A stretch of DNA of 64,000 bases from a virus (IMGVR_UViG_3300034284_002648:1-64000); one strand, 5' to 3'; positions 1 to 35,078 are shown, numbered from the stretch's first letter. Numbers and translations: made by a program. Notes: generated by a model from the letters alone, not told the origin.

Positions 1-1136
1 TAGACGTTAATGGATCAGCAAGTGTATCCAGTATAACATCTGATGAATTCAGATACAATACTGCTTCAACCACAGGACAACTTATAGTAGCAAGTGGAGA
101 GAATATAATTCCTAGCGACTATAATGTAGAAAATATTATAGTTGGAAATACAAGTGGTATTCTTGTGAAAACTGGCCCGGTATCATCATCCGGTTTATCT
201 AATATATATATAAATAATAGTGGGTTAAATATTAATGCTGATATCCAGATTCCAAATCTAGTCAATAATTATTTACTTACATTAGATAATAACAATAGAT
301 TATCTAATTATTCATATATATCACTAGGTGCATCCGCTATTAGCTTTGACAAAAATATTAAAGTTAATACTAATAATGAATATACTATAGATGGTAATGA
401 ACCAGATATATTTACCGATGGATATGTTGTTACTAGTGGACTAGTTATTGATCGTTCATCAGTTATGCCATCTGGAGCAATGTTAGTTCACATGGGTAAT
501 GGTTTGGCAAAATGGAAAACTATTACTGGTAATGATCTAATATTTAATGACTCTAATTTACAATGGAATAAATACCCCCATAGAAATGCTACAATTAATA
601 GTAGTACACAAATTACTATAAATGATATTATAGATTCTGCGGAGTTTGTTACCGGTGATACAATAGGTATTATACAAAATAATAATACATATTATACAAC
701 TATTAATAGTCAAAGTATTGTAAATGGATCAACAGTATTGCTAGTAGCCACCATGGGCATATCATCAGGATCAGCTGAAATATATTCAACAACAAGAGGT
801 GGATATTTATCTAGTTCTGTAACTAATGGTGCAACTACTAACAGGTTTAGTATCAGACCCGGCACAGCAACAATATTAAATTCAGGAAAAGCAAACATAG
901 ATTTTGGGGTTTATGGTTCATCAAATAATTATGCATTATATATTAATGCAGATTATGACGATAATAATAACGATGAATCCCAAGTTGTTATCAATGGATC
1001 AGTACCATACAATATTAGTAGTCAAAACTATGCTACACTTACAGTAAATGGATATTTATATGCAGAACAATTAAGAGTAAGTGGTAATGTAGATATTGAC
1101 TTCGGTGTTGTAGTATTTACAGGAGTAGCGCCATAA
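1..1136 (+). CDS. Putative tail fibre/virion structural protein, 5'-partial
   Basis: The frame of ORF 165..1136 is open back to position 3 (DVNGSASVSS...), so the gene starts upstream of the window. It is beta-rich and Asn/Ser/Thr-rich with DVNG and LTVNG fibre-type motifs. Confidence 0.55.
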   Translation, partial: DVNGSASVSSITSDEFRYNTASTTGQLIVASGENIIPSDYNVENIIVGNTSGILVKTGPVSSSGLSNIYINNSGLNINADIQIPNLVNNYLLTLDNNNRLSNYSYISLGASAISFDKNIKVNTNNEYTIDGNEPDIFTDGYVVTSGLVIDRSSVMPSGAMLVHMGNGLAKWKTITGNDLIFNDSNLQWNKYPHRNATINSSTQITINDIIDSAEFVTGDTIGIIQNNNTYYTTINSQSIVNGSTVLLVATMGISSGSAEIYSTTRGGYLSSSVTNGATTNRFSIRPGTATILNSGKANIDFGVYGSSNNYALYINADYDDNNNDESQVVINGSVPYNISSQNYATLTVNGYLYAEQLRVSGNVDIDFGVVVFTGVAP

Positions 1137-1612
1137 TGTCAGGATATATAAAAAGAGATATAACCACCTCCAACCCACCAGCACCAGATCAAATAGGAGT
1201 AGGAGAATTAGTTATTAATGCCACAACTGGTATTATGTATTCTAAATTAACTAATGGTATTATTATCAAATACCTACCAGTCTACGCATCTGCATCAACA
1301 GTGCCAATCATAACCTTTAGTGACTATTCTACCTTCTGTTGTACCGGAGACACCCTCACTGCTACAGTATCCAACTTAACAGTTGGAGAAAGCTATACTT
1401 ATGAATTTGTTGACTTAAATAATAATGGAGTTCAATTTACTGGAGATAGTACAGGATCTCTACTACCCACCTCCAATGCATCAAGAAGCGTAAGTGTTAT
1501 TTTGAGTATGGATGGCCCAGAAAGCGTTACATTGGTGAAATTTGTTGTTAAGCTTAATAATGTGGTTGTAGCAGAAAATATAGCATCTATTTGTTGTAGA
1601 GCTTGTTCATAG
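1136..1612 (+). CDS. Virion protein: N-terminal fibre-attachment-type motif plus one Cys-bounded beta-sandwich domain
   Basis: YIKRDITTSNPPAPDQIGVGELVINATTGIMYSK matches the KR..P..GEL.IN motif seen at phage fibre N-termini (Mtd_N/hyaluronidase_1-like). TAATG overlap with the upstream gene. Confidence 0.6.
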   Translation: MSGYIKRDITTSNPPAPDQIGVGELVINATTGIMYSKLTNGIIIKYLPVYASASTVPIITFSDYSTFCCTGDTLTATVSNLTVGESYTYEFVDLNNNGVQFTGDSTGSLLPTSNASRSVSVILSMDGPESVTLVKFVVKLNNVVVAENIASICCRACS

Positions 1613-1624
1613 GAATAATATTTT

Positions 1625-2572
1625 ATGCCTAAAATTTTTAATTATAGTATTAGTAAGTGCATAGATGGAATTGTTATACCATTTAGTGGAATACCATTAT
1701 CAGTAAATGAAATATACGCAGTAACATTTACTCATCAGGGTTCTACGCCCAGCGGATCAATTATTCTAAATCCAAGCGGATATTCATATACTCCAAGTTC
1801 TCCTACTAGTAATATATATACAACGGCACAAGTAAGTGGTATAATTGAAAGTTCAAGTTCTCATTTAGTAAAATTATCAATTACCAAAAATGGTACTAAT
1901 ATATATACAGATTTCGCTTCTATAGAGTGCGGCGAATTATGTATCACACAAACACCCACATACACATCCACCAATACTCCAACACCTACAGCTTCAGAAA
2001 CCCCAACAAATACACCGACACAAACTCCTACGCCAACCAATACAAGCACAGCAACTCCTACTCCAACAAATACTGTTACCAATACTTCTACTCCAAGCGA
2101 AACTCCAACTAATACTCCTACGCCCACACAGACTCCAACCAACACTCCAACAAACAGTCCAACTAATACTGTCACCCCATCACAAACTGCTACCAATACC
2201 CCAACCCCATCTATTACTCCAAGTAATACGGAAACTCCTCTGCCTAAGCCTGTTGATTTTTCTATGAGTTTCCCCGAACACATTATTGATTTGGAATGCT
2301 GCACATCTCCCAAATTGATCAATGTCAATTTAACCGGTCAATTAAATCAGCAATATTCATATACATTTAGCAGTATAGATAATCCAGAATATGTGGTATT
2401 TGATAATCCTAGTGGAATAGTATACTTATCAGAACCAGAGATGAATATTTATACCAATATCCAAATTTTGAGCGATACAGTTGAGAGCCTTATTAAGTGT
2501 CGTATTTTTGATGGTTTCAATAATATCGATGCGATGGCTGTTGTACGATGCAATAACCATAAAAACACATGA
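1625..2572 (+). CDS. Thr/Pro-linker virion protein with two Cys-bounded beta-sandwich domains
   Basis: 315 aa; a central ~100-aa TPTNT tract is flanked by two copies of the repeated domain. Confidence 0.7.
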
Positions 2573-2575
2573 ACA

Positions 2576-2584
2576 GTGTATAAT
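2576..2584 (+). promoter_or_regulatory. Putative late-type promoter motif GTGTATAAT
   Basis: Lies in an intergenic gap. The same motif occurs at 32303 and a variant at 9948. No TTGACA-like -35 is visible upstream. Confidence 0.45.
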
Positions 2585-2624
2585 TTAATATGAGGACGTC
2601 CCATGATCAATAATAGGTCAAAAA

Positions 2625-3368
2625 ATGAACGATACTAATCTATCTATAGACTTTGATTTTAGCCACTATTTTACTCCAGAAACATACGATATACAAACTA
2701 GTAAAATTGTAGAGCTAAACACAGACCAAATAAAATGCAAAAGAATTATAGTATCTGTAGTAGCTAATGGTTTAGAGCTTGGTAGACAATATACTATACA
2801 ATATTCTTTAAAAAATCTTAATGATAACATTTTTTCACCATCAACAGAAACATTCTACGCATCCAAAGCAACACAAAAGTTTTCTACTGTAGCCACTATA
2901 AATGATAGTCAGGTCTACATAATGAATGTTCTTATAACAAGAACCGGTTCTCCGTCTTCCGCCTCCGACATGGTAACTGTTAAATGTGGCAGTATTATTA
3001 CATGTCCAACAGAGCCAGTACCAATAGTACTTTCAGAATATGTTAGATTTGCCGACAGACCATTATTGCCGGTTGCTGCGCCCTACAGATGTGATGCTCA
3101 AGTAAATATACAAGCATTAATTAATAATGCTACTTTAGGAGAAAATTATACTTATACATTTTCTTCACTCGAAACCAATCCCAAAACAACTATTTCTTTT
3201 CAACCAGCTAGTGGGGTTGTTTCAGCCGGTGATGTCATTCAAAACATAAATACTGTTGCTAAATTTATTGGACAAAGCAATATATATTGTATTAAAATAG
3301 TTGTAGAAAATCAAGCACAAGATTCTTTTGAAGACTACTTATTAGTTCAGTGTTCAACCTGTAATTAG
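2625..3368 (+). CDS. Virion protein, two Cys-bounded beta-sandwich domains
   Basis: C..NGLELGRQY..FSPS..SDMVTVKC and C..NNATLGENY..FQPASG..EDYLLVQC. Confidence 0.7.
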   Translation: MNDTNLSIDFDFSHYFTPETYDIQTSKIVELNTDQIKCKRIIVSVVANGLELGRQYTIQYSLKNLNDNIFSPSTETFYASKATQKFSTVATINDSQVYIMNVLITRTGSPSSASDMVTVKCGSIITCPTEPVPIVLSEYVRFADRPLLPVAAPYRCDAQVNIQALINNATLGENYTYTFSSLETNPKTTISFQPASGVVSAGDVIQNINTVAKFIGQSNIYCIKIVVENQAQDSFEDYLLVQCSTCN

Positions 3369-3376
3369 GAAAGATT

Positions 3377-4024
3377 ATGTCAAAACTATCAGTAAAATTT
3401 GATAATACAACCCAAAAAATTGATAATCCAGACTGTTGTCCTAAAGGGGTTATCCTATCCTTTAAGGTTGAGAACATGGTGCCAGGAGTACAATATAATT
3501 GCTCATTAAGTACAATCGGCTCAGGATCAGCAGTATTTAAGCCTAATAATTTTAATATTACTGGAACACAGATTTCCGAAAGTTTTATGGTTGTAGCAGA
3601 ACTAAAAAATACTAGAGTTCATGTTATAAAAGTATCTATTGTTAACAATAATGATAACACAGATAGGGTTGAAGATATTATGACCCTCGAATGTGGACAA
3701 CCAAAATTCCTAGCTGCTTCATTTGAACAAAATAATATTATTATAGACTGTGGAGGATTTGATAATAGTTTAATTGGAAAAATTACTAATCTAATTTCTG
3801 GGAATAGATATGCTTATAGTTTTTCTGCTCTCGATTCTAGAGAAAGTGGTAATCTTAAATTCTCTCCTCCTAGCGGTACTGTTATTGCTACAACAGATGT
3901 AGAAAATATCAATACTTTGGTGCAATATTCTGGCAGATCAAAATCTGTTATTGTTAAATTAACAGTCACAGACTCATACAATAATTTTTCAGATAGTACA
4001 CTGGCCACACTAAAGTGCAAGTGA
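3377..4024 (+). CDS. Virion protein, two Cys-bounded beta-sandwich domains
   Basis: CC..ENMVPGVQY..EDIMTLEC and C..TNLISGNRY..FSPPSG..ATLKC. SD (TAGGA) overlaps the upstream stop. Confidence 0.7.
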   Translation: MSKLSVKFDNTTQKIDNPDCCPKGVILSFKVENMVPGVQYNCSLSTIGSGSAVFKPNNFNITGTQISESFMVVAELKNTRVHVIKVSIVNNNDNTDRVEDIMTLECGQPKFLAASFEQNNIIIDCGGFDNSLIGKITNLISGNRYAYSFSALDSRESGNLKFSPPSGTVIATTDVENINTLVQYSGRSKSVIVKLTVTDSYNNFSDSTLATLKCK

Positions 4025-4034
4025 GAGGAAATAA

Positions 4035-6338
4035 ATGTTAAGTCTACAATTTACAAAAACTATTATTCAAACCAATAATCCTGATGTTTGTTCATTAGGA
4101 GTAGAAATCTTTTTAAATATTAGTGGATTAATTCCTGGCCATAGCTATCAATTAAATTTTACAAAAGTTACTTCTGACGGCACAGTTAGTTTTGATCCTC
4201 CTTATGAAACTTTTGTTGCCAATTCTACTGTTCTTGGTAATTTCTTGGTCAAGGCCACATGTCAAGATGCAAGATATTATATTTTTAATGCTTCTTTGAC
4301 AGATCTTTCTACAGATGAGGTTGTAGAGGATAATATAACACTAGACTGTGGAGGAATCCCTCCCGGTATAACTCCAACGCCTACTAATACTCCAACTCCC
4401 ACCAATACTCCTAGTCAGACGCCAACAAATACGCCCACCTCTACTGTCACAAGCACAACAACAAATACTCCAACTAATAGCCAGACTCCAACTTCAACAC
4501 CAACTCCGACTACTACAACAACTAACACACCAACTAATACTGTTACTAATACAGCAACGCCTTCCCAAACACCAACTAATACTACAACTCCTACACAGAC
4601 ACCAACCAACTCCCCTACGCCAAGTGAAACACCACCAGTTTCGCCAACGCCAACAAATACTCCTACTAATACAACTACTCCGACTAACACATCTACTCCA
4701 ACACAGACGCCTACTAATACTGCAACTAATACATGCACACCAACGAATAGTGCGACACCAACTACTACAGCAACACCTACAGTTACTCCTACCAATACAT
4801 CAACACCAACACAGTCTATTACTCCATCACTAACACCAACACTGACCGCAACACCAACCACTACATTAACACCGACCAATACTACCAGTCAAACACCAAC
4901 ACCTAGCCCAACCAACTATCCTCTCGATGAATGTATAGGTACTGATAAACCAGCGTACTTCCTAGGTTGCTGCACTAACAATAAGCTTATTTCTCCTCAT
5001 CATAGAATACAGGTTGTTTTTGTTAATTTAAATATTGGCAATAGATACTTTTTTGAAATTATTGGAACAGATAATGTTAAGGTATATTCTACTGAAGATA
5101 ATTTTGTTGCACAGTATTATGAGTATTTAACAACAGCTTTCATCGCGGTTAAACAAGAATTCTGCGAACTGAATTATTTAACCATTAATTTATATGATGA
5201 TAGTAGAAATCTATTAAAGAGTAGATCTGTATTAGTATCTTGTGAGTCAGAAGAATATAAGAATGTAACAGATTGTACAGGAGCATCTGTTTTCTTTATT
5301 AACGATCCCGTAAATAGCAATATCTGTTTCTATTTTTCTGATGATTGTCGTAAAATTATTAATGTCACACCTACTCCAACTCCTACAAACACATTAACTC
5401 CGACAAATACGGCTACAAGCACACCAACTCAGACTACAACACCAACACCTACTAACACTCAGACCCCAACAAATACTACTACACCTAGCCAGACACCAAC
5501 CAATACTCCTACTCCTAGTGTGACTAGTACTAATACTCCAACACCAACAACAACATCCACACCAACACCAACAGCTACGGTCACAAGTAGTCCTACAGCT
5601 ACCAATACGCCCACACCAAGCTTGGTTAATAGATGTGCTATGAGAAACTATCTCATAGTTAAGGTTGGTACCACAGAAGCACTACCATACACAAATCTAT
5701 CTGGATCATATAGATCAGCTATAATGACAGGTTCTAGATCTCCGCTCGTTATAGATGGAATATCTTTAGATAATGGAGATTTAGTATTAGTTAAGAATAA
5801 TATTGGAGGAAATACATGGACAGGTTCAGATGTGTATACTGTACAAAATTCTGGTAGTCAATTTGCTCCTTGGGTTTTAGTTTCTTATGTTCCCACCACA
5901 GGAGAATGGTGCAAATTATTCTCCGATAATTTAGCCGGATCACAAGATAACTATTGTCCTGTTTACATACAACAAGGCAACATTAATTCTAAGAGTGAAT
6001 GGTTATTACCATCCAATTTTTCAACACAAGGTGCTATACAATCTGACTTGAGATGTGTTGATGATGTTATTATTAGACAGGTTCGTTTAGCTACAGTTGC
6101 TAATATAACTCTAACAGGACTACCTGTAATAGATGGAATACAAACATCCATTAATGATAGAGTATTAGTTAAAAACCAAACAGATCCTATTGAAAATGGT
6201 ATATACATAGTAGCTGGAGCGGATAAGTCATGGTACAGATCTTCAGACGTTAGAGATAATTTAAATATAATCACAGAATTAAGGGTCTATGTTTCTCAGG
6301 GTGTAGTAAACAAAGACTCTGTATGGATTATTAACTAA
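4035..6338 (+). CDS. Thr/Pro-linker fibre/decoration protein
   Basis: Two beta-sandwich copies and two long TP tracts. Two C-terminal copies of the phage structural motif IDG....DRVLVKNQT...NGIY..W.R. SD GAGG upstream. Confidence 0.7.
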
Positions 6339-6350
6339 GGAGTAGACTAC

Positions 6351-8492
6351 ATGGTAAAACAGGTACAAATCGGCAAAGACCCATTAAATTTTTCTAGACA
6401 AGAAAATACAGGGATCAACTGCCCACCATGCCAAACCCCAACACCAACTCCAACAGTTGCATGTATCACCGTTAATCTCAAAACCAGTGTTGCCTGTAAT
6501 AATTATACTGTTAAAGATTCTCTAAAGTTGGTATCTACTGATAAGCTTACATCTGTTACTAAAATATCAGATAATGAGTTAATTATGACAGGTTATGGAT
6601 CATGCTTATCTATTAATGATAATGTTCCAGTATCTAGGGCGCTTGTTGGTAAAACAAAACTACAATATGTACAACAAACAGACGGTAAAACTTCAACATA
6701 TTTCTCTATAGACAGTGATTTTGGAACCAAGGGCAAAGTTAATAGCATATTCTATAACTCCAACAACCTAAGAGTCTCTGCAAAATTTGATCACATAACA
6801 ACACAAACCGTATCAGGACAAACCAAAATTATAGCAGCAGGACAAACAGACTACAAAGCACTAGTTGCCAGATATTCAGCAACAGGAGCATTGGACAGAA
6901 CATTTGGCTCTGGAACCGGATACGTAACAATAGATACAATAGGTGAATCATCGTCAATTAAACTTTTAGATGTTTTTGGCTTGCATATTCAAACAGATAA
7001 TAAAATTTTACTATTTTGTAATGGATATGACATTGTTAATAAAAGATCTCTTGGTATAGTATTGAGACTTACTAATTCTGGTCTTATAGATAACACTTTC
7101 AATAATAATAAAACATATATACAACTTAGATCATCATTATCAGAGTTCGACGGTAGTAAATTCATTGGTAAAGAAGTTTATTTTTCTAATGATACTTTAT
7201 ATATTGTATTTGAAACATTTTCATCTATAAAACAAAACACGGTTATAGTAGCTAAATACAATATGTTTTCTGGTACTATGGATGAAAATTTTGGAGATAA
7301 AGGATATATTTATGCCAACACCGATAATAAAAATACCTATCTACAAAATATTTTCGTTAAAACAATTGATAATAAGAATATAATTTGTTTAATCATTAAT
7401 AACAACAACACTAGCTTACAAATTAATAAATATGCAGAAACCGGTATCGCAACGACCGATCAACCAGTAATCATACCCAATACCGTATTTACTATTTCCG
7501 ATAATACTAATAGTGGTTCACTAAAAGTTAATTTTGAGAATATCCGATGCAATCAATTAGATCTAGGCTCAGAAGTTATTTTATTTCTAAACCTCTCTAT
7601 CAAAAGTAATTCATTGGATCAGTTAGGAGGATCAAACCAATCACTATTACACTGGCTAGAAAAACAATCATTAATTACTGGACAATTTAATTATTCAGGA
7701 CTAGACTACCGCGACTGCACAACAGTTCCTTGTGATAGACAGCCCGAAGATAGTTATGGCACCCTTGGAATTAAGTCACAATCTGTAACAAAATATGATA
7801 CTTCAACCAGAGTATTGTTTGGATATTTAAAATTATCTAATAATATTACTACAGCATCTCCAATTAAATTAGACAGATTTAGCTCACTTGATGAGCATAA
7901 TATAGTTAAAAGAGTTATAGAAATATCTCCTAAATCTTATGTTTTAGCAGGATATTACGGCTCCAATACATATTCTAATTTTGGTATAAAAACAATCACC
8001 TTAAATTCTGATACTCAGTCTTTTGGACCAAGACAAAATGAAGTTTTTGGTAATATAGACTTTAGCGATTTTTGTAATACAACAACAGCTATAGATGATG
8101 GAATTGTTATAGAAGAATGTCCATGTGCGCCAGCACCTTCTCCAACACCAAGTCCAACACCGCCCCCAGCAACCAGTGACATTTTTATTGATACTGTTAC
8201 AGATAGTTGCGACAATCAAATTCCTGTTGTTACTTTCGCATGGAAGAAAAACAAAGAATCATTAGCTGGTTCATACGTAATACAGATTACAAAAGCATCT
8301 GATAAATCTGAGTTAGTTGCGGCTTCGTTTGAGATAAAAGCCACGGATAGTCAAGGTTCTGTTAGTGTAGATGTGAGCAACATTGACAAGGCACTAAATA
8401 ATAATAAGACTTGCATAGCCTCTATTTTAGATAATACGGGAACAGTAATATTTACTAAGATTTTTGTACTCAACATTAGAAATTGTGCATAA
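6351..8492 (+). CDS. Delta-60-repeat (beta-propeller) virion protein
   Basis: VARYSATGALDRTFGSG, IQTDNKIL, LRLTNSGLIDNTF and GTMDENFGDKG are delta-60-type repeats. Short TP linkers; SD AAGGAG. Confidence 0.7.
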   Translation: MVKQVQIGKDPLNFSRQENTGINCPPCQTPTPTPTVACITVNLKTSVACNNYTVKDSLKLVSTDKLTSVTKISDNELIMTGYGSCLSINDNVPVSRALVGKTKLQYVQQTDGKTSTYFSIDSDFGTKGKVNSIFYNSNNLRVSAKFDHITTQTVSGQTKIIAAGQTDYKALVARYSATGALDRTFGSGTGYVTIDTIGESSSIKLLDVFGLHIQTDNKILLFCNGYDIVNKRSLGIVLRLTNSGLIDNTFNNNKTYIQLRSSLSEFDGSKFIGKEVYFSNDTLYIVFETFSSIKQNTVIVAKYNMFSGTMDENFGDKGYIYANTDNKNTYLQNIFVKTIDNKNIICLIINNNNTSLQINKYAETGIATTDQPVIIPNTVFTISDNTNSGSLKVNFENIRCNQLDLGSEVILFLNLSIKSNSLDQLGGSNQSLLHWLEKQSLITGQFNYSGLDYRDCTTVPCDRQPEDSYGTLGIKSQSVTKYDTSTRVLFGYLKLSNNITTASPIKLDRFSSLDEHNIVKRVIEISPKSYVLAGYYGSNTYSNFGIKTITLNSDTQSFGPRQNEVFGNIDFSDFCNTTTAIDDGIVIEECPCAPAPSPTPSPTPPPATSDIFIDTVTDSCDNQIPVVTFAWKKNKESLAGSYVIQITKASDKSELVAASFEIKATDSQGSVSVDVSNIDKALNNNKTCIASILDNTGTVIFTKIFVLNIRNCA

Positions 8493-8502
8493 GGTAAAAA
8501 CA

Positions 8503-9948
8503 ATGGAAAGAATCAAATTTAAAAATAATACATTAAATACGGTCATTATACCAAACAGATTTACTCTTAAAGGATATATGGTTGAGGCTATATATGTTGA
8601 TGATCCAACCACTGTTGTTGGTGCTCCTTGCGGAAAGGGACATAGTTGTGATCGTGCCCGATTCAATATTGTTATTAATGATGTTGTGGTCTTGGAAGCT
8701 AATTTAAATAATCAAATAGAGGGTGGTGGCACAGTTGAAAGACCGGATCATCCAATAGCTCCTCGTCCACCATTAATGTCCGATGGCATAGGAGCATCGG
8801 AAATGGATAGATATTCAGCGAATATTATATCAGAATCCACTGCTAATCAAATAGCAGATAACGATCCAATCAACTATACCATTAATATTTTTCCACACCC
8901 AACAAATACTAATCCTCATACAGATATTACTTGGGTTAGAATTAAAGATCCAGAAGAAAATATCATTTATAGTAGCTGTTCATCTGCTGGTCAGGCAGTT
9001 TCTGTGACTGAAAATATTTTATCGAGCCTTTCTGCTGTCAAAAGACTAGAATGTTTAGATACTGTAAGTCTAGATTTTGATATTACAAATATGGAACCTG
9101 GAACAGAATATGCTATTAAATACAGAGTATTAGATATTCAATCTCTTAATACTATACCATTAAATGAGAAGACATATGAATTCTCAAACCCATGCTGCAC
9201 CAATAAATTTACTCAAGAATATTTGAATGGATTTACTATTACTCCATCATCAAGAAATATTTCTTGCAAGGTACAAATGAGTCTCAGATGCACACAATCT
9301 GCTCTTGTAGAAATTTCTTTATTGAGGAACAGCACTACACTCAGCAGAGATATTGCACAAATCATATGCCCCATCTGTAAACTTGACACATCTATTAATC
9401 AACCAATTATTGAAAAAGCATTATTATCTAATATTAATGATCAGTTTACTATTAATTTTACAAATCTTGATGTTTTAGGAAATACCATCAATCAATCTTT
9501 TGGCACCAATAATACAGCTAGTGTTCCTAATATTATTGAGAACAATAATTCTTATATAGATACCCCACTTAGCTTAACAGCTAATAATCTTACTATTAAT
9601 GGATATTACGAATATAAATTCTACACAATACCTGCGAATGCTCCCATATCTATAGAACCTATGACTGGAAGATTTTTTGCCGGAGAAACACAACAAACAG
9701 TAACATCCATGTTTAATATGACAAATAACCAAATCTCAATAATATATGCTTCTTTAAAAGATTTGGAAACTGGCGTTGTAAAAAACACTAGATTAGTATA
9801 TTTGGTAAACACAAGAAATTGTTCCGAACTTCCCAGAAATTTTGAATTGATAGAATATCCACAAAATGTTTCCACAGAATCTGGATTAGAACTTGGAGAA
9901 ACCTGTGATCCAAATAAATTGTTGAAAACATGTATATTGCCCCAATAG
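8503..9948 (+). CDS. Virion protein: HxC...NPH domain plus two beta-sandwich domains
   Basis: Start moved from 8464 to the ATG at 8503, which follows the upstream stop and an AAGG SD. The N-terminal domain is homologous to 48080-48450. Confidence 0.65.
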   Translation: MERIKFKNNTLNTVIIPNRFTLKGYMVEAIYVDDPTTVVGAPCGKGHSCDRARFNIVINDVVVLEANLNNQIEGGGTVERPDHPIAPRPPLMSDGIGASEMDRYSANIISESTANQIADNDPINYTINIFPHPTNTNPHTDITWVRIKDPEENIIYSSCSSAGQAVSVTENILSSLSAVKRLECLDTVSLDFDITNMEPGTEYAIKYRVLDIQSLNTIPLNEKTYEFSNPCCTNKFTQEYLNGFTITPSSRNISCKVQMSLRCTQSALVEISLLRNSTTLSRDIAQIICPICKLDTSINQPIIEKALLSNINDQFTINFTNLDVLGNTINQSFGTNNTASVPNIIENNNSYIDTPLSLTANNLTINGYYEYKFYTIPANAPISIEPMTGRFFAGETQQTVTSMFNMTNNQISIIYASLKDLETGVVKNTRLVYLVNTRNCSELPRNFELIEYPQNVSTESGLELGETCDPNKLLKTCILPQ

Positions 9949-9960
9949 TGTATTAGTATA
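9948..9960 (+). promoter_or_regulatory. Putative late-type promoter motif variant GTGTATTAGTATA
   Basis: Intergenic; resembles GTGTATAAT at 2576 and 32303. Confidence 0.35.
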
Positions 9961-9977
9961 GTACAGAGACCAATAAT

Positions 9978-10454
9978 ATGATTAATAATTTGATCTTAAA
10001 AGTATCGTTATCTGATGGATGTTCAGTAGCACAGGATATATTAACCATAATATGTCCAACCAGTACTCCTACGCCAACAATAACGGCCACTCCTACGAAT
10101 ACTCCAACTCCAACACCTACAGCTACTCCATTGCCAATTAATCAGGTTTCATATTTCCTTAATCAGACAAATAATTATACATATACAGTTGGTGGTAATG
10201 TTGTTGCTAAGTTTGCAACCACTAATACAGACGTATCAAGCGTTAATATAAAGTTACCAATTGTTCAAACAAGCAGCCCAAATATTTTGACACCAATATC
10301 TATTATTTATCAAAATACTGTTATTGGCCAATTACAGATAGATCCATCTCGCATATTCCTTGGTACAAATGTCGATATATCTTTTGCTCTTTCCAATACC
10401 GTCTACCAGTACACAAACATTGCTCTAACGGCCCCAGCAATCAATTTGAGCTAG
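9978..10454 (+). CDS. Small Thr/Pro-linker virion protein
   Basis: The N-terminal 27 aa resemble the final hairpin of the repeated beta-sandwich. A TP linker and a C-terminal beta-rich domain follow. Confidence 0.65.
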   Translation: MINNLILKVSLSDGCSVAQDILTIICPTSTPTPTITATPTNTPTPTPTATPLPINQVSYFLNQTNNYTYTVGGNVVAKFATTNTDVSSVNIKLPIVQTSSPNILTPISIIYQNTVIGQLQIDPSRIFLGTNVDISFALSNTVYQYTNIALTAPAINLS

Positions 10455-10466
10455 GAGTTTAAATAA

Positions 10467-11549
10467 ATGATAATCACAACCAGATTTTTTATATTTACAT
10501 ATTTAGGCAAAGAACCGCTCACTCTTCTTACGCCACCATCAAATATGTCTTCTGATCAAAGAGCACAATATAATACATTTATACAAAATGTTGACTCTAT
10601 TTATACATCTCAAAATAGTGCTGGTATTATTCCTACTTTTTATAAAACAAATGGAGTAGGAGATAAAAATTCTAGTCTCACTCAATTAGAGAGTAATAAA
10701 GCCTATTACGCCATTATGTCATCAACAGCAACATACCCAGTATTTGTTCCGGCTATAGGTGGTTTGGTACAAGGAAGTGGTGCAACAGGGTGTAGTGTTA
10801 GTCAAATACCGGTCATCTCATTCCCTGCTCCATCTTTTGTTCTCGAAGGAGAAAATCAAAATTATCAATATTTAAGTATTAATATTTCTCAATTACTACC
10901 CGGAACAAAATATCAATATAAACTAAGTAATTTTCAATCAAACTGGCCAGTTAAGATATTGCCAAAAGAAGGGGTTATTACACCACAGAGCACTAGCCAA
11001 AATATAAATGCTTATATGATGTTTGCTCCATCGCTTGATACAACAGATTGCCCAGATTGTTTTACAAATTACGTACTTGATCCAGACTATAAAGAAAATT
11101 ATGGACAAAATAATTTGTATGCAATATTACAAGTTTCTGTAGTCGCAGAACCATTCGATTCTTGTATTCCTATTGTGCAATCTATTCCAATTAGATGTAA
11201 GTCTTGTCTACCCAGAAGAACAATCAGTTACCCATCTGTAAAATTTACAAATGGTCCAAAACTAACTCTTTCGGGAGCTTGTGGAGATCAAGCATTTCCA
11301 ATTACTGTTGATGCTAGAAATTTTGATAAAGGTAAACCATATAAATATGTGTTTAGTGTTGATAATAATACATCTGTTATCACCCCTGCTAGCGGAATAG
11401 CAGGATTTGGAGATGGTGTGGGCCAGATAAGTGCGTTGGTAAATATTAAAAATGTATCCCCTATTGTTGCAAAAATTGAGGTGACATCTCAAGATGGTAT
11501 GAATAAAACATCTACAGATTTTCTAACTATCGAATGTAGTAATTGCTAA
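10467..11549 (+). CDS. Virion protein with two Cys-bounded beta-sandwich domains
   Basis: SQLLPGTKY..PKEG..IRCKSC and C..RNFDKGKPY..PASG..TDFLTIECSNC. SD TAGGAG. Confidence 0.7.
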   Translation: MIITTRFFIFTYLGKEPLTLLTPPSNMSSDQRAQYNTFIQNVDSIYTSQNSAGIIPTFYKTNGVGDKNSSLTQLESNKAYYAIMSSTATYPVFVPAIGGLVQGSGATGCSVSQIPVISFPAPSFVLEGENQNYQYLSINISQLLPGTKYQYKLSNFQSNWPVKILPKEGVITPQSTSQNINAYMMFAPSLDTTDCPDCFTNYVLDPDYKENYGQNNLYAILQVSVVAEPFDSCIPIVQSIPIRCKSCLPRRTISYPSVKFTNGPKLTLSGACGDQAFPITVDARNFDKGKPYKYVFSVDNNTSVITPASGIAGFGDGVGQISALVNIKNVSPIVAKIEVTSQDGMNKTSTDFLTIECSNC

Positions 11550-11561
11550 AAAGGATAAAGC

Positions 11562-16868: not shown

Positions 16869-16879
16869 GAGAAAAATAG

Positions 16880-22800: not shown

Positions 22801-23992
22801 TAATAATAGTAAACAATATATACAATTTTTAACTAAAATTGGTAATATGTCATGGAAATTTATAAGTAGTGGACAAAAACACACCCTTGCTATTAATACA
22901 GATGGTAATCTATATGGCTGGGGAGATAATTTCTATGGTCAACTTGGAGACGGAACTGCAAGAGAAAGACTTGTTCCAACAGCGTCGGTGAATACATCTA
23001 CGGATTGGACAGAAGTTTTTGCAGGCACGACCTATTCTCTTGGTAAACAATCTAGTAATGTTTTATATGGCTGGGGTCAAAATAATGAATATATGTTAGG
23101 CCTCTTCCCTCCAACAACAAGCAACATATCTGCACCAACAGCACTATTAGGTTATTGGACGGACATTACATTATCTAGCAATAGTGTTTTTGCTCTTGGA
23201 GAACCACCACCAACACCCACACCATCAGTTACAACTACAGTAACTCCATCTATTACTCCAACAAAAACACCAACACAAACACCAACAACCAGCAATACTC
23301 CTACTAAGACACCAACATGTACAGGTACTTCGACCCCGACAAATACTGCTACTCCTACTAATACTGTAACAAATAGTGCAACACCCACTAATACTCCTAC
23401 TCCCACATTAACCGGTACTGTAACTGTAACACCAACCGTATCTAATACGCCAACAAATACAGCTACTCCAACTAATACTGCAACTCCTACAGTAACAAGA
23501 ACTCCAACAAATACGCCAACTAACACAATCACTCCAAGTAGTACTAGTACGCAAACTCCTACAAATACTCTAACAAATACTCCAACAAATAGTGTCACTC
23601 CTAGTATTACTCCAACCATGACTCCCACTCAGACTATGACAAACACTCTGACAAATTCACCAACACCAACTATCACTCCATCAACAAGTCCATTGCTTAC
23701 TGTATTTTTCTATTATATTTCTGAAAGCCAATCTGATATTTGTAATAATAAAGAGGCCAATACAGTTAGAGTTATTAGTGTATACGATAGAGATAATAGT
23801 TTACAGTCTGGATCTTTTATATACAAAGATAAATATGCAAATACAAAATGGGTATTTAATGATTTAGAAACTATACTAAATACCAGCGCCCCTGTAATAT
23901 ATATGTTAGAGCTAAGTTCTAATAAATTATCTACACTTATTGCAGATAATAATGGATATGCTATAATAGATGAACAAGACATTAGTTGCTAA
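16880..23992 (+). CDS. Giant multidomain adhesin-like virion protein (LecA-like x2, LamG, DUF642-like, YVTN propeller, RCC1, TP linkers)
   Basis: LamG: [25 protein letters not shown]: [24 protein letters not shown]. LecA/PA-IL-like: [29 protein letters not shown]1: [28 protein letters not shown]. Confidence 0.75.
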
Positions 23993-24010
23993 TAGAATTG
24001 ATTATAATAT

Positions 24011-26071
24011 ATGCTATACAATATAAATTTATCACAATATAATTTATGTCATACATTAACCACCACTACAGTAGATATAGATACTACTGATATAAGTGTT
24101 GGTAACTATCTATATAAAACAAATAATATTCCTTTTTTATGGACAGAATTAAGAGCTATAAGCTCATTATTTGCCACATCTAGAAGTTTCTATCTCAATA
24201 GAACCAATGATACGACCACCATACAAGTAAAAGAAGACTTGACAAATGGCTATGCATTAATTGTGGAAGTCAACGCAACATGTCCTACTCAAACTCCTAC
24301 TCCGTCCATTACAGCATCCAATACTCCCACACCAACTAATACGCCAACACCCACTAATACTAGAACGCCCACAAGAACCCCAACTGTTACACCTAGTCCT
24401 CCTTTAAATAGATATTTATATTATGTCTCATCTAATTTAGAAGATGTTTGCTATAATAGATCTTCTACAGTAGTTAATCCTATCAGTCTGTTCGATATTA
24501 ATTCAACCCTAGAAATAGGGTCTTTCATATATAAAAACTCATCAGCTACTAGCAGATGGTTATTTAGTGAACTCACCACAAGATTAGGTGTTGTGGTATC
24601 TAAACTATATTTAATTCAGAGTAGTACAGGTTTGGTGGCCAGTATAATTTCTGGAACGGGTGGCTTTGCCGTCGTCGATGCAGACAACATACAATGTCCT
24701 GCTATGCAAATGTCAGATGAAACATATTTATTATGTCATACAAATTCATATGTTAATGTACAAATCAGCACAAAAAGTTTAGCAATCAGCAATTATATTT
24801 ATAAGAATAATGGTATAGATAATTGGACTTGGACAGAGTTAGTGGCATTGGATCCATCTTTTTCTGGTGCTGTAAAATTATTCTTAAAAAGGAATAACTA
24901 TATTATACGTATAGAGCAAGACATAGCAACAGACTATGCTGTTATTACAGATACAACCACCATATGTCCAACACAAACACCTACTCCAACCAGAACATCT
25001 ACACCAACTATAAGTGTAAGTCCGACAGTATCAGTCACACCATCTAATAGCAACACTCCTACTCCGAGCATTACTCTAAGTCGCACACCAACAAACACCC
25101 CTACTCCATCATATTCTCCTACTCCAACACCTACAGCAACAGACCCATTGAATGGAGTATACTATTATCTTTCTAATGATTCTTATGCTTTATGTCATAA
25201 TAATCCTGGTAAAATAATTTTAGTTTATGATAATAACGGTATACTAAATATTGGAGAAATATTATATCAAACATCAAATGCTTTAGATATTTGGATGTAT
25301 AGTGAGCTATTAACACTATTAGGTTTACTATCATCTGATGAACTATATATTAGAAGACAAATAGGTGCTTCAACAACAACCTACAAGATAATATCTAATC
25401 AGAATGGGGAATCAGAAGTTGCAGATATTCAAGTTTGTGTTACACAAACGCCAACACCAACTCCAACGAACACTCAAACACCCACTAATACTCAAACACC
25501 AACACAAACACTTACTAGTACTCCTACAAATACAAATACTCCTACTACTAGTGAGACCCCAACAAACACACCTACCAATACAAATACTCCTACAATGACG
25601 GAGACACCAACCAACACACCTACACCAACTAATACGGCCACACCAACTATAACAACTACTCAAACACCAACTAATACTAGTACCCCAAGCGAAACACCAA
25701 CTAATACCCCAACACCAACCAACACATCAACAGTAACTCCTACTGCCACAACAACTAGTACCACTACAGTTACTCCTTCTCCAACAGCTATTTATATTTA
25801 TAAAGCGATAAATATGAAAATTAATAGAGTAATTATTGGACATAATTATAAAGTAGAATTGTCTACAGACGATATTGGATTGGCCAAGGTTGAACCATCC
25901 ATAATAACATTTACAGGAACTTATGATCCTCAAAATATAGCATTTAAAATAGGGTTCTCTGCTGCTTTAGCTACCATTATATTAAATGCCAAAGTAACAG
26001 ATTTAGATACAAATATGATAGAATATAATACTGTATTTATTAAATGTAATGAAATACAAGATTGTTATTAA
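24011..26071 (+). CDS. Thr/Pro-linker virion protein with four ~90-aa Cys-bounded repeats and a C-terminal beta-sandwich
   Basis: Repeats of the form Y.S....LCH...L.IG..IYK...W...EL...C; three TP tracts. Confidence 0.7.
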   Translation: MLYNINLSQYNLCHTLTTTTVDIDTTDISVGNYLYKTNNIPFLWTELRAISSLFATSRSFYLNRTNDTTTIQVKEDLTNGYALIVEVNATCPTQTPTPSITASNTPTPTNTPTPTNTRTPTRTPTVTPSPPLNRYLYYVSSNLEDVCYNRSSTVVNPISLFDINSTLEIGSFIYKNSSATSRWLFSELTTRLGVVVSKLYLIQSSTGLVASIISGTGGFAVVDADNIQCPAMQMSDETYLLCHTNSYVNVQISTKSLAISNYIYKNNGIDNWTWTELVALDPSFSGAVKLFLKRNNYIIRIEQDIATDYAVITDTTTICPTQTPTPTRTSTPTISVSPTVSVTPSNSNTPTPSITLSRTPTNTPTPSYSPTPTPTATDPLNGVYYYLSNDSYALCHNNPGKIILVYDNNGILNIGEILYQTSNALDIWMYSELLTLLGLLSSDELYIRRQIGASTTTYKIISNQNGESEVADIQVCVTQTPTPTPTNTQTPTNTQTPTQTLTSTPTNTNTPTTSETPTNTPTNTNTPTMTETPTNTPTPTNTATPTITTTQTPTNTSTPSETPTNTPTPTNTSTVTPTATTTSTTTVTPSPTAIYIYKAINMKINRVIIGHNYKVELSTDDIGLAKVEPSIITFTGTYDPQNIAFKIGFSAALATIILNAKVTDLDTNMIEYNTVFIKCNEIQDCY

Positions 26072-26082
26072 AAGGACATTTT

Positions 26083-26307: not shown

Positions 26308-26308
26308 T

Positions 26309-29029: not shown

Positions 29030-29039
29030 GATTAATTAT

Positions 29040-32000
29040 ATGGCACTAGTAGATCCAGTAGTAGACAATAGCTTAGTATACATGATTTCAAATGGTAGAC
29101 AGAATTTACATATTCTGAATACAAGAAATCAAATAGATGATATCAACCTTAATGGTTTAGCAGAGACTATAACTGTGGGTGGTGTTCAATATGCAGCTAA
29201 GAGAATATATAGTGTTATAGTATATAGTGGTGAAGTATTGGCTGGCGGAGATTTTGGACTTAAAAAATGGAATGTATCTACTAGAAGATGGGAAAAATAT
29301 GCAACATTTACTGGCGGAATTAGTAGTCTAATTAATAAAGGATTATTTCCTAATAGCGTACTTGGTATGAAAGTTTATAATGGTAAACTTTATATCTTTG
29401 GTAATTTTGTAGATAGCCTTGTTGGTAATTCTGCATCCTCAGTTACTTCAAGATATCTAGTTATATACAATGGATCCTTTTTTGAACCAGTAGCGGGCGC
29501 GAACAGTCTGCCGATTATCAACTTATCTAATTATGGACTATTGAGCAAATCAACAACTAACTTTGCATTAAATGATAATATTTTTTCTTTCTACGTATAT
29601 AACAACAATATTTATATTTTAGATAAAGGCATATTTACTGGAAAATCAACGCTACAGGATATTGTAAGAACAGATGCCGGTGCAGATATAGCTAATGATG
29701 GAACAACGCTAATTTATTATTTATTAGATGGTTCCTCAACCGTTGCTACAAAAAAAATTAATGGACAGGTACTGAACGATTATCAAATAGACAATACTCT
29801 CTACATCACATCTGCTGTTAAAAAAACAGGATCAGAATATCAACAAAATATATTTTCTTCTATTAACTTAGAAACATCAGAAATTTCTAGAGGTAACGAA
29901 ATATTTCTTGGTACTACTTATGCATCTGTAATAGGAGACGTATTTACTAATTACAACGTAGAATCCAACTCTACATCATCAGCCGCAAGCAATAAATGCA
30001 CTAAATTTTTGAAACAAAATGATGTAAGTTTTAGAAAAATTCATAATGGAATTTCTATACAAAATGGAACATATGAACAAACTAAATCTGCAATTTTAAT
30101 AGACACAAATAATAATCTATGGGCTTTGAAATCACCTTGGGTAGAAACCAATATTAATGCAGCATATTATGTGCCACTTTCTCAAGAAACACAATATAAG
30201 CTATTTGTAAGATATAATTTAGATTATGGTCCACTAAAACTTAATGGCAGAATATCAGATGCGGTAATGGGCTTAGATACTGTAGCGATACTAACAAATT
30301 CTGGAGAAATTTATATTTGGGGGAAAAATAGTCATGGACAATTAGGTCCAGATATTCCTATTGGATCAACAATAGATTCTCCGGTGAAAGTTTTTGGGTC
30401 TGGATATAAAAAACTATACGTTTGTGACAATACCTACTACGCATTAAAAGATGATGACACGCTATTTGCTTGGGGACAAAGCACTACCGATTTAGGTGGA
30501 CAATTGATTCCTGGAGTAGCTGGTAATGCTGTTCTACCTGTACAGATAGAAATACCTATTGGAACGAATGATACCCCAATCAACAGAACAGGAGTCAGTA
30601 GTGTAGCGGATGAGATGGGTAGTTTTTGGAGTAGTATTAGTCCATCTCCTGTTGGTGTGTATGCTATTGATAAAACTGGACTACTATTCTTTTGGGGAGG
30701 TCCAGAAGGAACATCCTCATATCCTATTACTAGAACAGTTTCTGGTAATTCTGAAACACATACAGGACTATTTGATATAGATAATATTAGGCCGGTACCA
30801 AAACCTTCTGAACCAGGAAAAGCCGTTTTGATAGGTTGTCCAGCATTCACTAATGATCAAACCCCTGTCACAGGAGATCCCGGTAAATATACGTCAATAT
30901 CCCATGATAGTTGCTGGTATAATCAAATATATAACTTTAACTTTTCTATATTATCAAATTCCACAGGCGTTCAAAGCAATATATATAGTTTGCTCAATAA
31001 GTCTATTAATGCTAATTTAATTTTTGTTAGTAGTTTTGTAGCCTATACATATGTTATTAATGACAAGTCATATTCTTCTATATGGCATAAGAATTTTCTT
31101 AATGATGAAACGAATGAAAACTCTCTAGGTCAAATTAGAACATCCACATGGCTCAAAACATCTGAAGTACCATCGTATGTAATCAATTTACCAATACCTC
31201 AAGCAAAAACGCTGGCTGCTGGAAATGCATACGAGCTAAATCTAAACAGCAATCAGTCAAAACAATTGGTAATCAAGTTTAGATTCAATAATAAGCCTTA
31301 TTGGACTATTAATAGTGTTGGTGGTGTCAGTATCCTCGGAGGTATCAATTCCAACTCATCAAATTTGACGAATATCCGCCTTTGTTCTATAGATTCTTCT
31401 GATAGTTTGAGAATAGATACTGGAGCACCAGTTAAATACGACTATATTACAAAAACCAAAAAATGGAATTTTACTAATCAGTATTATGCTTTGGACCAAA
31501 ATGGCGAACTATACGGACTTCCATATTCTGGTTATATAGGAACATCCAATAGATATCCTTTTACTCTTCCGTTTAAGTATTATATAAATGCTGAAAATAA
31601 TAATTTTACCGGCGCTACCACACTATTTGACATAAACAATTCTTATATTTCTGATATTATCATTAATAATAATCGATTGATTATCGGTGGATATATACCT
31701 AATGGAAATAGCTTTTATTCATATAAGAGTTTAGCAATATATGATTTGGAACAGAATGCTGTTGTTAATCTATCTATTGATCCTACATCTTTAATTAGTA
31801 CAGTAATTAATAATCTAGTTCCTCAATCAGAATGGGTTCAACCACCTCCTCCACCAAGCCCAACTCCAACACCGACACAAACACCCACGATGAGTATTAC
31901 TCCATCTAATACTCCAACAATAAGTCTCAGTCCAACAAATACTGTCAGTCCTACTAACACTAGAACGCCAACTTTAACAATTAGCGAAACTCCAACTTTA

Positions 32001-32297
32001 ACACCAACTATTAGTCAAACACCAACACTAACTCCCACTATAACATCTACCAGAACACCTCAGCCAACCCCAACTAGAACACCCACAAGAACAGTGTCGG
32101 CAACTCCAACAAATACCAGAACTCCGACACCCACTCCTACTCAGACTCAAACAATGACTCCTACTAATAGTCCTAGTCCCAGGAATTCATGGGATATTGA
32201 TGGTCAACAAATTGTCTTCACAGATGCCGAAAGAAATGCTGTTGGTCTGAATTGTGCTTGTATAGCAGAAGAAACAGCTGCTAGAGAGGGAAGATAA
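29040..32297 (+). CDS. Beta-propeller/RCC1 virion protein with a C-terminal TP tract
   Basis: Blades VYSGEVLAGGDF, VYNGKLYIFGNF and NNNRLIIGGY; RCC1 repeat LTNSGEIYIWGKNSHGQLG. Confidence 0.7.
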   Translation: MALVDPVVDNSLVYMISNGRQNLHILNTRNQIDDINLNGLAETITVGGVQYAAKRIYSVIVYSGEVLAGGDFGLKKWNVSTRRWEKYATFTGGISSLINKGLFPNSVLGMKVYNGKLYIFGNFVDSLVGNSASSVTSRYLVIYNGSFFEPVAGANSLPIINLSNYGLLSKSTTNFALNDNIFSFYVYNNNIYILDKGIFTGKSTLQDIVRTDAGADIANDGTTLIYYLLDGSSTVATKKINGQVLNDYQIDNTLYITSAVKKTGSEYQQNIFSSINLETSEISRGNEIFLGTTYASVIGDVFTNYNVESNSTSSAASNKCTKFLKQNDVSFRKIHNGISIQNGTYEQTKSAILIDTNNNLWALKSPWVETNINAAYYVPLSQETQYKLFVRYNLDYGPLKLNGRISDAVMGLDTVAILTNSGEIYIWGKNSHGQLGPDIPIGSTIDSPVKVFGSGYKKLYVCDNTYYALKDDDTLFAWGQSTTDLGGQLIPGVAGNAVLPVQIEIPIGTNDTPINRTGVSSVADEMGSFWSSISPSPVGVYAIDKTGLLFFWGGPEGTSSYPITRTVSGNSETHTGLFDIDNIRPVPKPSEPGKAVLIGCPAFTNDQTPVTGDPGKYTSISHDSCWYNQIYNFNFSILSNSTGVQSNIYSLLNKSINANLIFVSSFVAYTYVINDKSYSSIWHKNFLNDETNENSLGQIRTSTWLKTSEVPSYVINLPIPQAKTLAAGNAYELNLNSNQSKQLVIKFRFNNKPYWTINSVGGVSILGGINSNSSNLTNIRLCSIDSSDSLRIDTGAPVKYDYITKTKKWNFTNQYYALDQNGELYGLPYSGYIGTSNRYPFTLPFKYYINAENNNFTGATTLFDINNSYISDIIINNNRLIIGGYIPNGNSFYSYKSLAIYDLEQNAVVNLSIDPTSLISTVINNLVPQSEWVQPPPPPSPTPTPTQTPTMSITPSNTPTISLSPTNTVSPTNTRTPTLTISETPTLTPTISQTPTLTPTITSTRTPQPTPTRTPTRTVSATPTNTRTPTPTPTQTQTMTPTNSPSPRNSWDIDGQQIVFTDAERNAVGLNCACIAEETAAREGR

Positions 32298-32302
32298 GTA
32301 CG

Positions 32303-32311
32303 GTGTATAAT
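32303..32311 (+). promoter_or_regulatory. Putative late-type promoter motif GTGTATAAT
   Basis: Intergenic, identical to 2576-2584, followed by an AAGGA SD. Confidence 0.45.
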
Positions 32312-32339
32312 ACTTTGAACAATTAAGGAATATATAATT

Positions 32340-33203
32340 ATGGCTAATTTTAAAGTTAATTTCATTACTAATAGCAAAGTAATCAATTTTACCAATTGCT
32401 GTTGTCCAAATCTTATAAATGTTGTTTGTAGAGACTTAGAATTGGGACAAAAGTATTATGTATCGTTTGATGATACCCCAACATATAGAGCCCAAGTTTT
32501 TCCTGCAAAATACTCGTTTATAGCACAAGCACAGGTTGTAGGATTTAAAATTATCAATGGTGGACTCAACTATACTTCTACTCCAACCATAACTATAACG
32601 GGCGGAGGAGCGTCTACAAATGCTAGGGCTACAGTTACTCTCACAGAAAAAACTTTCGCCAATAATGTTAAAACAAAAACTATTACTGCTATAAATCTGA
32701 TAGATCCAGGTAGCGGCTATACCAGTATGCCAACTGTTACTATTACAGGAGGTGGTGGTAAGGATGCGGTTATTAAACCTATTTTAGGTAATGTAGTAAA
32801 AAATTTAACCTTTTTTGTAGCGTTTGGATGTAATGAAAAAAGTATGCCAATTCCTACTCCGTATCCAAGCAATACTCCTACACTTACTCCTACTCCAACA
32901 CTCACTCAAACTCCAACACTTACACCTACTCCAACATCAATATCTTTGGAGATATTACCATCTAATATTACTACATATACATCTCCTTTAGGTCAAACTA
33001 TTACGCTAGAAGATTACTTTACTGATAGGACTACTTATCCTGTTAGGGTATATTATGGTGTTACAGGTCAAAGTGTTGTGGTACCTCCAGATTATGATTA
33101 TGCTGTTTTCATTAAGGGTGACGGAACTGTTACAGATAGTGCTGTTGTTCCTGGAACTAATATTTCTTTTAAGAGTCAAATTTTATTAGGAAAAGGTATT
33201 TAA
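32340..33203 (+). CDS. Virion protein: truncated beta-sandwich carrying an inserted GxGYTSxPTVTITGGG repeat domain
   Basis: IINGGLNYTSTPTITITGGG and IDPGSGYTSMPTVTITGGGG are repeats typical of phage baseplate/tail proteins; a TP linker follows. Confidence 0.65.
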   Translation: MANFKVNFITNSKVINFTNCCCPNLINVVCRDLELGQKYYVSFDDTPTYRAQVFPAKYSFIAQAQVVGFKIINGGLNYTSTPTITITGGGASTNARATVTLTEKTFANNVKTKTITAINLIDPGSGYTSMPTVTITGGGGKDAVIKPILGNVVKNLTFFVAFGCNEKSMPIPTPYPSNTPTLTPTPTLTQTPTLTPTPTSISLEILPSNITTYTSPLGQTITLEDYFTDRTTYPVRVYYGVTGQSVVVPPDYDYAVFIKGDGTVTDSAVVPGTNISFKSQILLGKGI

Positions 33204-35075: not shown

Positions 35076-35078
35076 AAT

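Follow-up and report, generated by a model that had tools for sequence, protein, structure and literature searches.

The first 64,000 nucleotides of an 80,257-bp virus record, IMGVR_UViG_3300034284_002648 (hereafter the window), contain nine neighbouring genes that are built from 14-15 diverged copies of one domain of about 100 residues. The best-supported description is that this domain is an unnamed sequence family within the well-known class of phage surface immunoglobulin (Ig)-like domains, and no result indicates a new mechanism. On balance, the domain probably acts as a disulfide-stapled structural or adhesive bead of virion fibre or decoration proteins. The window is AT-rich (about 33% G+C), and a block of co-oriented genes, several of them giant, extends from base 3 to about 51.7 kb; all copies of the domain lie on the + strand.

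A single copy, at the C-terminus of the product of open reading frame (ORF) 1136, was used as the starting query. A phmmer search led from it to ORF 2625, and profile hidden Markov models were then iterated with hmmbuild and hmmsearch. The model converged after four rounds on 13 copies, and matched a copy at the C-terminus of ORF 24011 that was absent from its training set with an independent E-value (iE) of 2e-8. When each gene was left out in turn, every copy was recovered by the model of the other genes' copies, with iE values between 1.8e-4 and 3e-17. In a control in which every ORF of the contig was shuffled five times, the best E-value was 0.06. The firm count is 14 copies in nine genes (ORFs 1136, 1625, 2625, 3377, 4035, 8503, 10467, 24011 and 32340), and the model finds no further copy in the remainder of the 80-kb contig. 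The alignment of the copies gives the motifs C(C), I.v.v.nL..G..Y.y.F, F.P.sG, NI.t, ikv.v.d and D...I.C. Copies are only about 20-25% identical to one another, so the duplications must be old. The initial annotation had counted about 16 copies in about 11 genes; convergence of the model and the leave-one-out recoveries bear out the recurrence and show that the copies align significantly, and the count is corrected to 14 firm copies and one probable copy in nine genes.

The copies are distributed as follows (left-out iE values in brackets). ORF 1136 (1136-1612, 158 residues) ends in copy 1 at 1310-1609 (7e-10), which opens with a CC doublet, the protein itself ending in CCxxC. ORF 1625 (1625-2572) has copy 2 at its N-terminus (1631-1945; 7.5e-9), followed by a Pro/Thr linker, and copy 3 at its C-terminus (2273-2569; 3e-7). 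Copies 4 (2709-3002; 1e-14) and 5 (3063-3365; 1e-16) are the first and C-terminal domains of ORF 2625 (2625-3368), and the 215-residue product of ORF 3377 (3377-4024) consists solely of copies 6 (3410-3709) and 7 (3722-4021). ORF 4035 (4035-6338) starts with copy 8 (4062-4364; 6e-13), again followed by a Pro/Thr linker. ORF 8503 (8503-9948), whose start had been placed correctly, as its orthologues begin there, contains copy 9 (9025-9384; 1.8e-4), with an additional Cys-bearing loop, and copy 10 (9520-9819; 5e-8), the sole copy without both flanking cysteines. ORF 10467 (10467-11549) carries copy 11 (10827-11213), which belongs to a long form of the domain (about 130 residues) that keeps the N-terminal half, then takes in a Cys-rich loop and finishes in CxxCLP, and copy 12 at its C-terminus (11253-11546; 9e-9). 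Copy 13 (25763-26059), the copy found unseen, forms the C-terminus of ORF 24011 (24011-26071) and reaches an iE of 1.4e-13 with the family model. Copy 14 (32370-32831; 4e-5) lies at the N-terminus of ORF 32340 (32340-33203), with its N-terminal half extending to about 32624 (model positions 2-60). ORFs 1625, 2625, 3377 and, for the most part, 1136 encode proteins made of the domain alone. Pro/Thr linkers connect copies with one another and with lectin-like, RCC1-propeller and tail-fibre-type domains.

Two further stretches had been claimed as copies. The one within ORF 4035 (4950-5249) is a probable, diverged fifteenth copy: hmmsearch aligned it over the full length with an iE of 0.049, and hhalign covered 86 columns, starting at the CC doublet and reaching the final Cys, with a P-value of 2e-5 and a probability of 77%. 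The other, a Cys-bounded stretch at the C-terminus of ORF 6351 (8193-8489 within 6351-8492), gave no hmmsearch match and an hhalign probability of 2.9%; its sequence lends the claim no support and we rejected it as a copy. A fragment of the domain that had been overlooked was found at the N-terminus of ORF 9978 (9978-10454). It comprises 28 residues (9984-10067; model positions 72-101, conditional E-value 1.4e-4) and contains the last two strands and the terminal Cys.

The fold was predicted with AlphaFold2. Copy 7, modelled on the 14-copy alignment, gave eight strands with a predicted local distance difference test score (pLDDT) of 93 and a predicted template modelling score (pTM) of 0.83. 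The whole product of ORF 3377, modelled with 20 homologues, gave a pLDDT of 91 and a pTM of 0.64; it is predicted to form two sandwiches with identical strand order, each with one extra short N-terminal strand, and the pTM makes the relative orientation of the two domains less certain. Three copies modelled in this way gave one fold, and the models and the fold searches agree with the initial proposal of an Ig- or fibronectin type III (fn3)-like beta-sandwich. In a Foldseek search of the PDB, major sperm protein (MSP), PapD-like chaperones and ASH domains ranked first, with E-values of about 1e-4 and template modelling (TM) scores of 0.6-0.7. Exhaustive structure alignment placed PapD-like, MG, ASH and MSP sandwiches at Z 9-11.4, with root-mean-square deviations (rmsd) of 2.3-2.7 over 90-99 of about 100 residues, and these alignments run sequentially over the whole domain. 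Copy 6 in the model of ORF 3377 matched the N-domains of SafB and FimC at Z 10.5-10.8. The PapD-like and MSP superpositions (Z 10.1-10.8 over 93-97 residues) are tied with MG, HAP2 and sialidase-linker sandwiches and have no support in sequence; a specific kinship to PapD was rejected because its score is shared by so many other sandwiches. Since the fold matches are tied among unrelated sandwiches, the modelled domain is an ordinary Ig-like sandwich of the E-set type with no single close structural relative. The two-domain model of ORF 3377 matched tandem ASH, pilin, intimin and RbmA arrays loosely (TM 0.3-0.5), tandem ASH being the top match. In the canonical copies the last strand is confidently predicted in cis (E89-99 in copy 7; E97-106 and E204-214 in ORF 3377). 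Pilins of the chaperone-usher type have an incomplete Ig fold lacking the last strand and an N-terminal extension that they donate to the next subunit, whereas the three canonical copies modelled are predicted to be complete sandwiches with a last strand of their own. They are therefore not pilin-like, and the earlier analogy with pilins does not hold for them.

Cysteines were analysed in 139 family sequences, non-redundant at 70%. Cys is frequent in four columns: the two of the doublet after strand A (56% and 82%), that at the end of the last strand (91%) and one a few residues beyond it (62%). The second Cys of the doublet and the Cys of the last strand (columns 27 and 194) co-occur strongly, with counts of 112/2/14/11, an odds ratio of 44 and a P-value of 4.5e-8 that is not corrected for kinship. 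The first Cys of the doublet pairs with a Cys in strand F (columns 26 and 169; 22/22, P-value 7e-7, likewise uncorrected for kinship). In the predicted fold, the A-B turn and the end of strand G would share one pole and edge of the sandwich. The flanking cysteines thus behave as a pair and, by strand topology, fall at the same pole, so that the clamp disulfide between them suggested by the initial annotation is likely. Almost all cysteines of the small proteins are placed at the borders of domains. Odd Cys totals (5, 7, 7, 13, 9 and 5) occur in six of the nine proteins that carry the domain, so at least one thiol per chain must be unpaired within that chain. In the virion of Agrobacterium phage Milano, cysteines of the structural proteins form both intra- and inter-chain disulfides that stabilise the particle (PMC10491603), and the odd totals leave room for inter-chain bonds of that kind.

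Scans of Pfam-A, NCBIfam and PHROGs revealed no family for the domain, in line with the statement that it belongs to no named family. Among 10 window proteins (ORFs 1136 to 10467, and 32340), Pfam gave nothing at E ≤ 1 beyond chance-level matches, and ORF 24011 matched no Pfam family at E ≤ 0.001. The domain proteins are not members of the named Ig-like families fn3 (PF00041), Big_2, I-set, PKD or CARDB. Relatives with many repeats gave summed partial matches to Pur_ac_phosph_N, CBM_48, PhoD_N and fn3, in which no single stretch passed alone. The family profile matched only fibronectin chains among PDB sequences, with an E-value of 1e-4 over about 40 positions. In this match the 'nL.PG..Y.Y.F' hairpin at profile positions 17-56 (strands B-C) aligns to the E-F hairpin of fn3 and on into the first strand of the next repeat. 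Judged from the sequences, the likeness could come from a convergent tyrosine corner or from an ancient circular permutation. We rejected both fn3 membership and a circularly permuted fn3, since the match is a motif of only 40 positions, convergent or too weak, whereas the structural alignments run sequentially over the whole domain. A language-model look-up in the ESM Atlas returned Big_9/Cadherin-like clusters with a score of 0.90, which is a lead only.

A profile search of 1.84 billion cluster representatives (clusters at 50% identity) retrieved 408 proteins at E ≤ 1e-3, 148 of them at E ≤ 1e-10, and many of the 408 carry 5-21 matched stretches. The long form of about 130 residues, in which the shared first half bears an NWPV motif and a Cys-rich loop is inserted before the CxxCLP end, occurs in arrays of 5-12 copies that are closed by one short-form copy at the extreme C-terminus. 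Proteins with such arrays sit on ten IMG/VR contigs of 48-244 kb (L002-L011), seven of which are at least 97 kb. There, up to four consecutive genes consist almost purely of the long form, with 1, 2, 2-5 and 6-12 copies, the last gene ending in a short-form copy. Because array genes are found on these other large contigs, reuse of the domain over neighbouring genes is a trait of a wider group of large phages. A full copy ends within 12 residues of the C-terminus in 76 of 135 representatives, and a copy lies within 25 residues of the N-terminus in 69 of 135, so the frequent terminal position noted in the window holds across the family.

Megablast and tblastn searches with the region and its neighbouring genes found no DNA or protein resemblance among deposited phage genomes, and relatives of a DnaE fragment (DnaE-C) in the phage collection are all below 31% identity. 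Exact or near-exact relatives of ORF 3377 were found on contigs of 203-248 kb, and one of these, an IMG/VR record (G001; 232,683 bp), is rated complete by CheckV; the window therefore comes from a jumbo phage. Between 80 and 92% of the words sampled from window positions 1136-6338 were present in four lake-water or aquatic metagenome runs from two studies, a count that leaves aside three possible source samples, which indicates that the phage recurs in fresh water. No RNA data set is among the sequencing runs listed as holding the stretch. It seems somewhat probable that a lineage of uncultured freshwater jumbo phages uses this family as its standard surface-protein bead.

The complete relative G001 matches the window copy for copy: all 14 recur in unchanged order, and only within 79.6-110.4 kb. 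The orthologues of the domain proteins are 71-92% identical, as compared with 87% for DnaE-C and 76% for two neighbouring large proteins. Values of dN/dS, the ratio of non-synonymous to synonymous substitution rates, are 0.03-0.12, with dS near saturation. This is strong purifying selection, and the domain-bearing genes are working genes. Neither identity nor dN/dS gives any sign of the rapid diversification that is usual for host-range tips. Conservation in the family falls on Cys, Tyr-x-Tyr-x-Phe, Gly, Pro, and aromatic residues alternating with aliphatic ones, all typical of a core or a turn. The family alignment shows no evident conserved patch on the surface, and no polar pocket residues are shared across the family.

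At its end, ORF 4035 encodes a domain that matches PHROG tail-fibre and head-decoration families, and the repeats of ORF 32340 match PHROG baseplate-wedge, Hc2 and virion-structural families. Large neighbouring proteins contain RCC1 propellers, a LamG lectin domain and a DUF642-like module according to Pfam; most other proteins were assigned to no family. From these few PHROG domain matches and the logic of the gene block, we infer that the domain proteins are on the virion. They might instead serve the phage during infection in some other way, for instance by being released at lysis or by acting on the host surface, and the small number of hallmark virion families detectable in this lineage would fit such a role. 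We regard this as highly improbable, because ORFs 4035 and 32340 carry tail-fibre, baseplate-wedge and virion-structural domains, the genes lie within a single long block of uniform orientation that also encodes giant multi-domain proteins of the type found in fibres, and the proteins open directly with the domain, with no evident signal peptide.

The proposal that each copy is a bead on the virion surface rests on the core- and turn-type conservation, the long homotypic arrays and the conservative evolution of the genes. That canonical copies are complete, with their own last strand, argues for a general structural bead. Disulfide-stabilised virions (PMC10491603) and the Ig-like domains of phage surfaces, for which Fraser 2006 is cited in PMC9853417, provide precedents that support this proposal. 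In the mechanism we envisage, the Cys after strand A would bond with the Cys at the end of the last strand and so staple each bead. A second bond would often link the first Cys of the CC doublet to the Cys of strand F. Both would arise through oxidation when the particle enters lake water. The beads would then be rigid, stable units of stalks and caps that space and display binding domains, and they would probably add weak, unspecific adhesion, a role already suggested for Ig-like domains elsewhere among phages. Where a protein consists of beads alone (ORFs 1625, 2625 and 3377, and mostly 1136), one of them would also anchor it to the particle.

Several observations weigh against this proposal. 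Many copies and proteins have odd numbers of cysteines, which a purely intradomain clamp leaves unexplained. The bead-only proteins need an attachment function that the bead account leaves unspecified. Finally, Phage_sheath_1 and Baseplate_J have no match in the complete relative G001, and the module cannot be assigned to any known type of tail.

The initial annotation had favoured a docking or polymerising module that connects the proteins into a single assembly. On such a view, terminal copies would bind across proteins, by strand exchange or inter-chain disulfides, and connect the nine proteins into one branched fibre assembly. More than half of the family proteins do have the domain at the very N- or C-terminus, and four window proteins contain no other domain able to anchor them, so that some copies must hold them to the particle. 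Odd Cys counts and terminal CC or CxxC clusters leave thiols for inter-chain bonds, as in phage Milano; two copies are incomplete (ORF 32340 keeps the N-terminal half, ORF 9978 the last two strands); and pilus chaperones and pilins are among the top fold matches. These matches, however, are tied with MG, ASH and HAP2 domains, and the canonical copies are predicted to be complete sandwiches, unlike pilins. The conserved residues are of core type with no evident surface patch, and long homotypic tandem arrays are typical of stalks rather than of docking modules. No dockerin-like partner was present among the proteins scanned, and a 130-kb relative keeps a half copy of the ORF 32340 type alongside one other copy and no detectable homologue of ORF 9978. 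A docking role is unlikely. A third possibility is that the beads themselves are receptor- or glycan-binding units that set host range, like the Ig- or lectin-like tips of other phage fibres. This would fit the C-terminal, distal position in many fibre-like proteins, the company of binding-type domains (LamG, DUF642 and RCC1) and the general precedent that phage Ig-like domains bind carbohydrate, as reported in PMC9853417. It is quite unlikely, given that divergence between orthologues does not exceed that of DnaE or of the large neighbouring proteins, that dN/dS values of 0.03-0.12 give no sign of diversification, and that no polar pocket residues are common to the family.

The bead and docking roles might also be combined. 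Inter-chain disulfides through the terminal CC and CxxC clusters, together with incomplete copies completed in trans, would weld the nine products into a covalent, branched fibre network. By analogy this would be a phage counterpart of pilus strand complementation combined with cross-linking of the Milano type. We consider such a network very unlikely.

The two incomplete copies bear on trans completion. The product of ORF 9978 opens precisely with the penultimate strand of the domain; the last two strands, the terminal Cys and a Pro/Thr linker are followed by an unrelated domain of about 100 residues. The upstream gene ends 30 nt before ORF 9978 and is in a different frame. The arrangement is kept in the 233-kb relative (L001), and a related-locus search with ORF 9978 as query found nothing. 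The fragment may be a remnant or a trans-acting strand pair. In ORF 32340, the copy is broken after the fifth or sixth strand by two 'GG..Y..P.V.ItGGGG' repeats, those that match the PHROG baseplate-wedge and Hc2 families. Beyond the repeats the domain resumes for about 20 residues (about 32766-32831), with a short strand leading to Cys164 and the ending ...FFVAFGC, and these residues are invariant among orthologues. The 130-kb relative (G002; L012, 3001-3590) has the same truncated layout, with ...FFVAFGC followed by a Pro/Thr tail and then the end of the protein. G002 has a single further copy of the domain and lacks a detectable homologue of ORF 9978; completion of the ORF 32340 half copy by ORF 9978 in trans is thereby disfavoured. 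To judge from the sequence, the clamp could be closed in cis by the short strand and Cys that follow the insertion.

The Ig-like accessory domains of tailed phages (Fraser et al. 2006; T4 Hoc; Pfam Big_2, I-set and fn3) are the closest known system. As they are described in that literature, they are likewise small beta-sandwiches, terminal or in tandem, on fibre- or decoration-type proteins and mixed with other modules, and have the same presumed role of display and weak adhesion. The present domain differs in having no profile membership in those Pfam families, in its co-varying flanking cysteines, in forming whole proteins by itself, and in its number, 14-15 copies over nine genes where one or two are usual. 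PapD-like, MSP and ASH domains (the N-domain of pilus chaperones, major sperm protein, and CFAP65 and CEP192) resemble it over the whole domain (FimC Z 10.5, SafB Z 10.8, ASH3 Z 9.7-9.9). In contrast to the PapD-like proteins, it shows no sequence signal and no second chaperone domain, there is no evidence for strand donation, and the scores are tied with those of unrelated sandwiches. The MG domains of complement C3/C4/C5 and alpha-2-macroglobulin fit equally well or better (Z 10.0-11.4, rmsd 2.3-2.6, 92-99 residues) and are also serial beads, but no sequence relation was detected and their biological context is different.

Cohesin and dockerin, to which the domain had also been likened, are similar in that both systems have terminal beta-sandwich modules with Pro/Thr linkers in multi-protein extracellular assemblies. 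No Cohesin or Dockerin family was matched in the 18 window proteins scanned against Pfam (ORFs 26309, 35079 and 42794 were left out), and cohesin is absent among the fold matches listed. The proteins of phage Milano (PMC10491603) are unrelated to those described here, in which the main Cys pair would lie within one domain. With fn3 and Pur_ac_phosph_N, both of the E-set, the domain shares the short hairpin motif 'L-x-P-G-x-x-Y-x-Y'; only about 40 positions match, the hairpin is formed by strands B-C here and by E-F in fn3, and no single stretch passes the threshold.

As the family (about 400 clusters) lies outside Pfam, NCBIfam and PHROGs, its recognition would allow 'hypothetical' genes of freshwater jumbo phages to be annotated as fibre or decoration proteins. 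It would be a fourth sequence family among phage Ig-like domains, one with a built-in disulfide staple. Being small, predicted with confidence and probably disulfide-stapled, the bead could also be used as a scaffold for display. Should the beads prove to link proteins covalently, the locus would illustrate how a large adhesin of many proteins can be put together with no dedicated assembly machinery.

Other features of the gene block were also recorded. Two adjacent paralogous genes at 33240-37034 encode proteins of 611 and 651 residues that match neither a Pfam nor a PHROG family; the second paralogue copy in a relative is 52% identical to ORF 33240. The 1918- and 2279-residue proteins that follow this pair are also unannotated. 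In translations inspected by eye, ORF 24011 contains, between 24011 and 25700, four more Cys-bounded modules of about 95 residues, of two alternating types and separated by Pro/Thr linkers. One module of the ORF 24011 type, with the pattern ...YY.S....D.C.N..., is present at the C-terminus of the 2370-residue product of ORF 16880 (23690-23989). From their sequences, these look like copies of a second unnamed Cys-bounded module.

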